Positions 35,995-36,737 of a stretch of 64,000 bases of DNA are shown piece after piece. The position numbers and the translations under genes are program-made. Every line of letters starts with the position of its first letter. Position 1 is the stretch's first letter. The DNA is from Microbotryum violaceum (Eukaryota): the NCBI GenBank assembly GCA_001244265.2, contig LN717261.1:1875591-1939590 (forward strand). Reading direction: 5' to 3'. The notes under the pieces were generated by a model. The model made no database searches. It was not told the DNA's origin and was given only the letters and a program-made list of their open reading frames with translations.

Positions 35995-36703
35995 CCATGG
36001 TACGGCGCTACCCTCGCGCCCAAGACTTGGCGAGGTTGCGATGGCCCTCCCTGAGTCCCTGGCGACCTTGGGACCGGGACATAGCAGCGAGGGTTTGTTC
36101 TTGAATGAGTGTCACTAAGATTGGATGAGAGTGAGAGGGAGAAAGGAAAGGTTCGAGGGAGTGGCGCAGGATTATTTACGTGGTTTGATTTGTTGTTCAG
36201 CCCCTAATGCCGCTGGTCGAATGCCATACGGGCAAATTGGTTGTTCAGCCCCTAATGCCGCTGGTCGACTGCCGGAATGACACTGACACCGCCGGCGCAC
36301 CGCATCACGTGACAAACGCCAGCCCTCGCCTCGCGTGTCAGGCAGAGCGCTGCTGTAGAAGCAATATCATGCAAAGCCACGCGCTTGCGGTTCATTAAAT
36401 ACCATATGAGTGGAAGCATTGTTTTATGTCAGCGAAAAAAAGAAGGAAAATACTGGGAGCGCTGTAGCTTCGTTGGAACGGCGCGGAAAGTACAAAAGTC
36501 ACCACAGCGCTTGTACATGACTTTTGATCGGAACATGAACACCACAGGCAGGTGCGGCAGACACAACAGTATGCTGGTACATCCACCACAGGCGGTCCGG
36601 AGGGCCGCAACCTAGTTAAAAACAGCGATTTTAGGTACATTCCTTAACCCACACTTTTTTTTTACTAGTTAGGGTAACTAGTTAGGGTAACTAGTTAGGG
36701 TAA
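35995..36703 (-). mobile_element. Helitron family 1, 5' fragment (copy D) with triplicated 13-bp terminus
   Basis: Homologous to copy F and ends at the same GTACCATGGG point. (CTAGTTAGGGTAA)x3 at 36665-36703; internal 29-bp duplication at ~36192 and ~36240. Confidence 0.85.
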
Positions 36704-36706
36704 CTA

Positions 36707-36737
36707 CTAGGTTCGGCGGCGCGCTCCGCGCGCCACC
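36707..36737 (-). mobile_element. Helitron 3' terminus of a second family
   Basis: GC hairpin GGCGCGC-GGA-GCGCGCC followed a few nt later by CTAG|T on the minus strand. Confidence 0.7.

Follow-up and report, generated by a model that had tools for sequence, protein, structure and literature searches.

The Helitron family and its surroundings

The window examined here, a 64-kb stretch of Microbotryum DNA, is rich in transposons. A LINE open reading frame with RVT_1 and zf-RVT domains lies at 21423-24629, copia-type RVT_2 fragments lie at 29667-30962 and 58490-59113, and a 79-bp unit is repeated 3.8 times with 100% identity at 31125-31421. Self-comparison by BLAST revealed one repeat family of ~2.4 kb, represented by six copies or fragments, designated A to F, and by a left-end fragment, C'. 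Copy A (33194-35577, minus strand) and copy B (51712-54065, minus strand; delimited by self-BLAST and tblastn) are complete deletion derivatives. Homology of copy C (56216-~58169, minus strand) ends at ~58169 next to the copia fragment at 58490, which probably interrupts this copy. Copy D (37903-40177, plus strand) is truncated at the 5' end, and copy F (35991-36706, minus strand; self-BLAST and tblastn) is a 3'-truncated Helitron fragment. Copy E (27266-27903, plus strand) is older, being about 85% identical to the other copies. The inverted left-end fragment of ~70 nt, C' (56135-56204), adjoins the right end of copy C within 56135-56242, an arrangement explained either by self-insertion, with one copy entering another's left end, or by foldback of the left-end hairpin.

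Protein comparisons identified the family as a Helitron. All 17 matches of the open reading frame of copy D were Microbotryum proteins, two of which carry Helitron_like_N. A search for longer relatives yielded 15 proteins, 10 of them with both Helitron_like_N and PIF1 in the precomputed Pfam column, and a Pfam scan found both domains in each of four full-length Microbotryum relatives; neither DUF6570 nor an endonuclease was found in these four at E <= 0.001. In blastx and tblastn analyses, copies A to D gave plus-frame matches only, to the first ~535-607 residues of Microbotryum Rep-helicases, with copy C matching protein P0019 at 77% over 352 amino acids. These N-terminal, plus-frame matches identify the copies as Helitrons with an internal deletion, in which the 5' region and Rep remain and the helicase is lost, and show that the Rep-helicase remnant is read in the sense direction in the orientation assigned in the first-pass annotation of this DNA. 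No copy in the window retains the helicase part, and no open reading frame for it lies elsewhere within the 64 kb. Gene models of the relatives begin about nt 95 of the left end.

The right end of the element

The right ends of copies A (33194-33220), B (51712-51738), C (56216-56242), and D (40151-40177) all read CCCGTTAA-T-TTAACGGG, followed by TTCCCA and then CTGG, which is the hairpin-plus-CTRR right end of the HLE1 definition given in the HELIANO paper (PMC11417382). The hairpin has 8 bp (7 modelled), with a DNA fold of -6.3 kcal/mol and a z score of -2.3. The next base after CTGG is T in all four copies, and similarity stops there. The coding orientation and this hairpin, CTRR, and T at the opposite end both agree with the earlier proposal that the TTAC-type termini are Helitron 5' ends. 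No target-site duplication flanks copies A and B, the two that have both ends; copy A is flanked by T and T and copy B by A and T. Comparison of the first 40 with the last 120 nt of copy A found no terminal inverted repeats of the Helitron2 type (best score, 6.5; shuffle mean, 7.3). The element is an internally deleted Helitron of Microbotryum with canonical, HLE1-type architecture.

Some features of the surrounding DNA were also observed. Copy A is inserted in a palindromic MITE-like sequence of ~100 bp (33100-33193 and 35578-35625) with inverted ends of 12-13 bp (GAGGCGCATGCG...CGCATGCGCCTC). The 8-mer TTACCCTA lies 15 nt behind the right end of copy A, where it belongs to this MITE-like host sequence and may stand by chance. 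The stretch just behind the right end of copy B (51288-51710) has a contig depth 25-45x that of the flank, which points to another repeated sequence, and TTACCCTA lies at its edge (51284-51291, minus strand).

The left end and its boundary

As first reported, the left ends start with TTAC and not with the TC of canonical Helitrons. This holds for all five left ends in the window (A, B, E, F, and C'), which align from a T-A8-GTGTGAGTTAAGG core outward to TTAC; the conserved core reads GTGAGTTAAGGAATGTACC... The first-pass annotation had allowed for a conserved TC terminus further upstream. We found no conserved sequence upstream of TTAC among the five 5' flanks, and these unrelated flanks indicate that no TC terminus lies hidden there. 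TTAC is preceded by A in two of the five ends and by T, G, and T in the others. Together, the sense orientation and the right end (hairpin, CTGG, and T in four of four copies) identify the TTAC end as the true left end.

An imperfect hairpin (CTAGTAAAAA... / ...TTTTTAACTAG) and, after it, a GC hairpin occupy the first ~90 nt of the left end, with a predicted fold of -16.8 kcal/mol and a z score of -4.1. At 35480-35577 on the minus strand, and at the equivalent positions of other copies, the long hairpin is based on two CTAG motifs and the GC hairpin has 7 bp. On the opposite strand, the GC hairpin, CTAG, and T mimic a Helitron 3' end. Two other assignments of this terminus were rejected. One, an opposite-strand 3' end formed by these elements at nt 69-90 of the left end, conflicts with the coding orientation and is also ruled out by the fact that all copies run 58 nt further. 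The other, the 3' end of a non-LTR retroelement with slipped repeats, was rejected because the array occupies the 5' end on the sense strand of the Rep-helicase.

Four of the left ends carry the 13-mer TTACCCTAACTAG, written more generally as TTACCCTAAC[T/C]AG, which is located at one end of the ~2.4-kb repeat. With two or fewer mismatches allowed, the 64-kb window holds seven matches versus 0.31 expected, a count reached in 0 of 100 shuffles. The matches comprise 35565-35577 in copy A, three in tandem at 36665-36703 in copy F, and 54028-54040 and 54053-54065 in copy B, all on the minus strand, and 56147-56159 on the plus strand in fragment C'. Our analysis establishes that the left terminal sequence (LTS) of this Microbotryum Helitron family begins with the 13-mer. 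The fifth, older left end, that of copy E at 27266 on the plus strand (starting TTACTACCTCTTTATATATAAAAAGGTGAG), opens with TTACTACCTCTTT and is without the 13-mer; its start, TTACTACCTCTTTATATATAAAAAG, stands at the same distance from the core as the other ends. The lack of the 13-mer in copy E marks the 13-mer-type left end as derived.

The last four bases of the unit are CTAG in five of the seven matches and CCAG in two. CTAG closes the unit in copies A and F and in the outer unit of copy B, and CCAG closes the innermost unit, TTACCCTAACCAG, of copy B (54028-54040, minus strand) and of fragment C', two of the four innermost units. The earlier description of the unit as ending in CTAG thus holds for most but not all matches, and the identification of this CTAG with the Helitron 3' motif is weak, given that two of the four innermost units read CCAG and that the 3' end of the family is CTGG. 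Where two units adjoin, a 10-bp palindrome, TAACTAGTTA, is created, and three tandem units fold at -6.0 kcal/mol (z score, -3.3). A metagenome scan with the conserved 26-mer of the left end gave no matches. A scan with two adjacent units gave one, on an unrelated contig (L001:301-326), in which TTACCCTAAC occurs twice, 13 nt apart; this site has no further likeness to a Helitron end and was taken as chance.

The unit also contains CCCTAA, as noted in the first-pass annotation, which had raised a role for telomere proteins or telomerase. The telomere motif of Microbotryum is TTAGGG (PMC10078771), and the unit places 8-9 nt of C-strand telomere sequence (ACCCTAAC[C]) before the LTS, with the polarity that the C4A2 repeats have ahead of the LTS in Paramecium Helitrons (PMC13085455). 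Telomerase or telomere proteins might accordingly add or select the CCCTAA unit, or the family might target telomeric repeats as the Paramecium elements do. Against either idea, there is one hexamer per 13-nt unit, two adjacent CCCTAA hexamers occur nowhere in the window, and CCCTAA is found 17 times in the window versus 16.1 expected, which is chance level. Furthermore, the partial pieces described below begin with the nontelomeric TTAC, the older copy E has no hexamer, and the right ends have no telomere-like repeats behind them. We therefore regard a telomeric origin of the unit as barely credible.

Anatomy of the stacked prefixes

Three of the four copies with the 13-mer (F, B, and C') carry one to three extra whole or partial LTS starts, each of 5-13 nt, before the complete LTS. 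Copy A has its complete left end alone, with a single 13-mer at 35565-35577 and no stack. In copy F (36664-36706, minus strand), the stack consists of TAG and two extra whole units followed by the complete end, so that three tandem copies of TTACCCTAACTAG lead inward to T-A9-GTGTGGGTTAAGG. Tandem Repeats Finder reports this array with a period of 13, 3.3 copies, and 100% matches, and the additional 0.3 copy corresponds to the outer TAG. In fragment C', TTACCCT and TTACC, exact 7- and 5-nt prefixes of the LTS, stand at 56135-56146 on the plus strand before the complete end, of which the innermost unit, TTACCCTAACCAG, and ~45 nt of adjoining left end are present before the sequence is broken (56147-56204). 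These 12 nt are exactly two prefixes, a composition open to 20 of the 4^12 12-mers with the three end variants seen. The outer stack of copy B (54041-54065, minus strand) reads TTACTCTAACTAG, a unit with two mismatches, then CTAC, then TTACTACC(T), before the complete end with CCAG.

The four ends listed in the first-pass annotation at 35577 (one unit), 36703 (three units), 54065, and 56135 were thus given with correct strings, apart from the outer TAG of the copy F array, and the 5-13-nt prefixes seen here bear out its reading of the extra pieces as micro-fragments of the left end. Copies F and B and fragment C' each show a repeated left-end start before a complete end together with unrelated flanks, the pattern by which multiple 5' termini are recognized.

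Not all of these pieces match the end beside which they stand. The E-type left end begins with the 9-mer TTACTACCT, which in copy B stands before a different LTS variant. This 9-mer also directly continues the right end of copy C, where TTACTACCTAG (56205-56215, minus strand), with its 9-nt prefix of the E-type left end, immediately follows CTGG. The 8-mer TTACTACC occurs four times in the window versus 0.43 expected, and three of these occurrences are at Helitron ends (the start of copy E, the stack of copy B, and 56215, just past the CTGG of copy C); the remaining occurrence, at 10241, is unrelated. At the copy C junction, part of the coincidence of TTACTACCT may be due to a 5-nt filler, TTACT, next to the ACCTAG of the interrupted neighbor.

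Copies A and B are 99.4% identical over 1986 bp (33593-35577 versus 52055-54040), with an uneven distribution of differences. Nine of the 11 substitutions fall within the initial 195 nt, identity drops to 92% over the final 360 nt of the copies, and the central ~1.78 kb is identical apart from one indel. This pattern resembles that of a central tract of gene conversion shared by two old insertions at a distance of 18 kb. The near identity of A and B gives no argument for fast change of the stacks, as the 99.4% figure reflects the central conversion tract only. With the central tract homogenized between old insertions, the differing stacks of A and B are uninformative on rate.

Public read contigs over copy B and fragment C'

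We compared 4 of 22 listed public runs over 50500-56400. In run X1, which may come from the source strain, summed contig depth over the element was ~50-550x that of the single-copy flank, a value that is not a copy number. Summed depth dropped from thousands to ~3x flank between the bin ending at 54045 and that starting at 54046, which indicates that the outer stack of copy B is not common to most copies. The X1 contig over the C' stack was identical to the window, with no other letters and no gaps. Contigs of runs X3 and X10 (another organism label) also spanned the C' stack, and each was 13 nt longer than the window. The extra 13 nt most likely lie at 54136-54200, in a 13-nt satellite of the GGCGAAGGCGCGA type observed at 54121-54200; as the contigs of two runs are 13 nt longer across 54070-56160/56187, the copy number of this satellite probably varies between strains. 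The X3 and X10 contigs started at 54070, 4 nt outside the supposed boundary of copy B, and these breaks suggest that the true outer edge of this copy may differ; they might also reflect an empty or paralogous allele. No joint skipping copy B was present among the 15 of 45 joints listed for the four runs.

These data also bear on whether the 13-mer and the TTAC pieces belong to the insertion site, with the true left end lying further in, at T-A8-GTGTGAG. The base before T-A8 is always the G of C[T/C]AG, reminiscent of the flanking tetranucleotides of IS91- and IS608-type elements, and the TTACCCTA found 15 nt behind the right end of copy A also speaks for this reading. However, a 13-mer expected about once per 67 Mb cannot have pre-existed at four unrelated sites, and the flanks outside the 13-mer are unrelated. 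In addition, the right end of copy C continues with TTAC..., as expected if an LTS starts there, and the high-copy contig depth still includes the bin with the innermost unit. A target preference of this kind is therefore very improbable as the source of the units.

Origin of the stacks

HUH transposase chemistry joins ends precisely, so that extra bases beside an end require an error step. Considering the five left ends and four right ends of this one window, we give about even odds (a probability of roughly 0.5) to an origin of the stacks that is linked to transposition and acts in trans. The prefix of a foreign LTS variant in copy B and the junction of an RTS with an LTS prefix at copy C both favor events between copies. 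These prefixes could have been acquired by either of two routes. In the first, the transposase or replication would overshoot the RTS into a following LTS, either in a head-to-tail pair or at a circular RTS-LTS junction, and cleavage between CTGG and T would then turn the carried-over prefix into new outer 5' sequence. In the second, a copy would insert among the opening bases of a resident LTS, and the resulting composite would later be mobilized from the outer nick site. The insertion route suits whole units, in which CTAG faces T, and fits the 5- and 7-nt pieces poorly, because the incoming right end would then face C or A and not the T found in four of four copies. Whole 13-nt units might further be gained or lost when another nick site is used or when slippage occurs on the TAACTAGTTA palindrome, and a stack, once formed, would pass to daughter copies.

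Some observations speak against an origin in trans. The stack of copy B needs mismatches and holds an unexplained CTAC, and the outer pieces may in part have pre-existed in the targets. The array of copy F, with 3.3 perfect in-phase units and an outer TAG, is what plain slippage gives. In that case, replication slippage or small tandem duplication in situ would have multiplied the first 13 bases unrelated to transposition, aided by the ACTAGT and TAACTAGTTA palindromes and by TAGT microhomology. The 10-bp palindrome between adjoining units and the fold of three units noted above fit such a process, and the C' stack can be obtained by simple tandem duplication in two steps, of 7 and 5 nt. Both of these duplications, however, begin exactly at the first base of the element. 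The 9-nt prefix of another LTS variant in copy B could not be copied from adjacent sequence, an LTS prefix is also present behind a right end, and the C' stack is identical in the X1 contig and spanned by the contigs of X3 and X10. Slippage fits copy F, and we consider it somewhat unlikely as the source of the stacks as a whole.

The first-pass annotation had instead proposed abortive cycles of nicking and strand transfer at the origin. In a self-templated form of this model, a transposase nick before TTAC, a short extension of the flank by a polymerase, and religation of the displaced end would duplicate a prefix each time from the element itself. Such self-templated initiation fits C', in which the exact 7- and 5-nt prefixes are explained if the innermost site is always nicked, and the recurrent short lengths of 4-5 nt in B and C' agree with it. 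It does not fit copy B, as it leaves unexplained TTACTACCT, the prefix of another variant, and likewise the prefix behind the right end of copy C, and we found no experimental precedent in the available text of the Helraiser study (PMC5876387). This proposal thus accounts for one stack and is, for the family, quite improbable.

Returning to the transposition-linked reading, we would go one step further only as a speculation that we hold unlikely to be correct: the stacks may be a natural record of errors in the Helitron transposase cycle, with each piece left by one aborted initiation or by one termination that overran the right end by some bases and entered the next left end. If this is true, a genome-wide census would yield the nick position, the error spectrum, and the frequency of head-to-tail intermediates for a eukaryotic HUH transposase, and would do so for a family that abandoned the canonical TC start. 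Even in the less specific case that the stacks are by-products of transposition, they would offer a cheap gauge, from sequence only, of the 5'-end precision of a eukaryotic rolling-circle transposase, and they would reveal the formation of composite ends, a component of the capture of foreign DNA by Helitrons. If the stacks are due to slippage only, they are a minor curiosity. Helitron ends are hard to annotate because tools seek TC...CTRR, and a family such as this one, with a canonical right end and a TTAC left end bearing micro-prefixes, would be missed or mis-bounded.

Comparison with known Helitrons

In its overall organization, the Microbotryum family resembles HLE1 elements as described in the HELIANO paper (PMC11417382). 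The genus has a Rep-helicase of the Helitron_like_N and PIF1 type, the left end varies more than the right end, and copies A and B, with both ends present, are without a target duplication. It differs from them in starting with TTAC instead of TC and in having A before the left end in only two of five copies. The telomere-targeting Helitrons of Paramecium aurelia likewise have C-strand telomere-type sequence directly before the LTS, but they are flanked on both sides by telomeric arrays of variable length at chromosome ends (PMC13085455). In contrast, the Microbotryum family has a single hexamer in a 13-nt unit, occupies internal sites, and has no such sequence behind its right end.

Composite ends have been described for other Helitrons. 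In maize, Helitrons with multiple termini arise from nested copies, and their composite ends, formed by nesting and transposition from the outer 5' end, resemble those considered here; the maize elements differ in having whole extra termini, mostly 3', and not micro-fragments as in Microbotryum (PMC3288121). The older start of copy E, T-TACTAC-C, is similar to ATCT.TACTAC, the 5' search pattern for maize helA, a resemblance only (PMC3288121). Of the Helraiser circles, about half were joined at aberrant RTS-LTS junctions, and head-to-tail Helitron arrays have also been described (PMC5876387). Such imprecise junctions give a route to fix extra bases beside an end. The aberrant Helraiser junctions, however, linked sequence from upstream of the LTS with sequence from within the RTS, and stacked LTS prefixes are not reported in the available part of that study (PMC5876387).

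In our literature search, we found no account of Microbotryum Helitron termini or of stacked prefixes of 5-13 nt. The FoHeli elements of Fusarium oxysporum (Chellapan et al. 2016; PMC5148889) are also fungal Helitrons in which the start of the left end is repeated before a complete left end, in versions that differ by copy, and the sharp divergence of their flanks indicates that the composites were transposed. They are Helitron2-like with asymmetric terminal inverted repeats, whereas the Microbotryum family has none and ends on the right in a hairpin and CTRR. In FoHeli, it is the first 31-85 nt that are repeated, which was explained by self-insertion followed by mobilization from the outer 5' end (PMC5148889); in Microbotryum, the repeated pieces are 5-13 nt long and up to three or four are stacked. 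The stutter at the Microbotryum left ends is thus a micro-scale form of the known phenomenon of multiple 5' termini.
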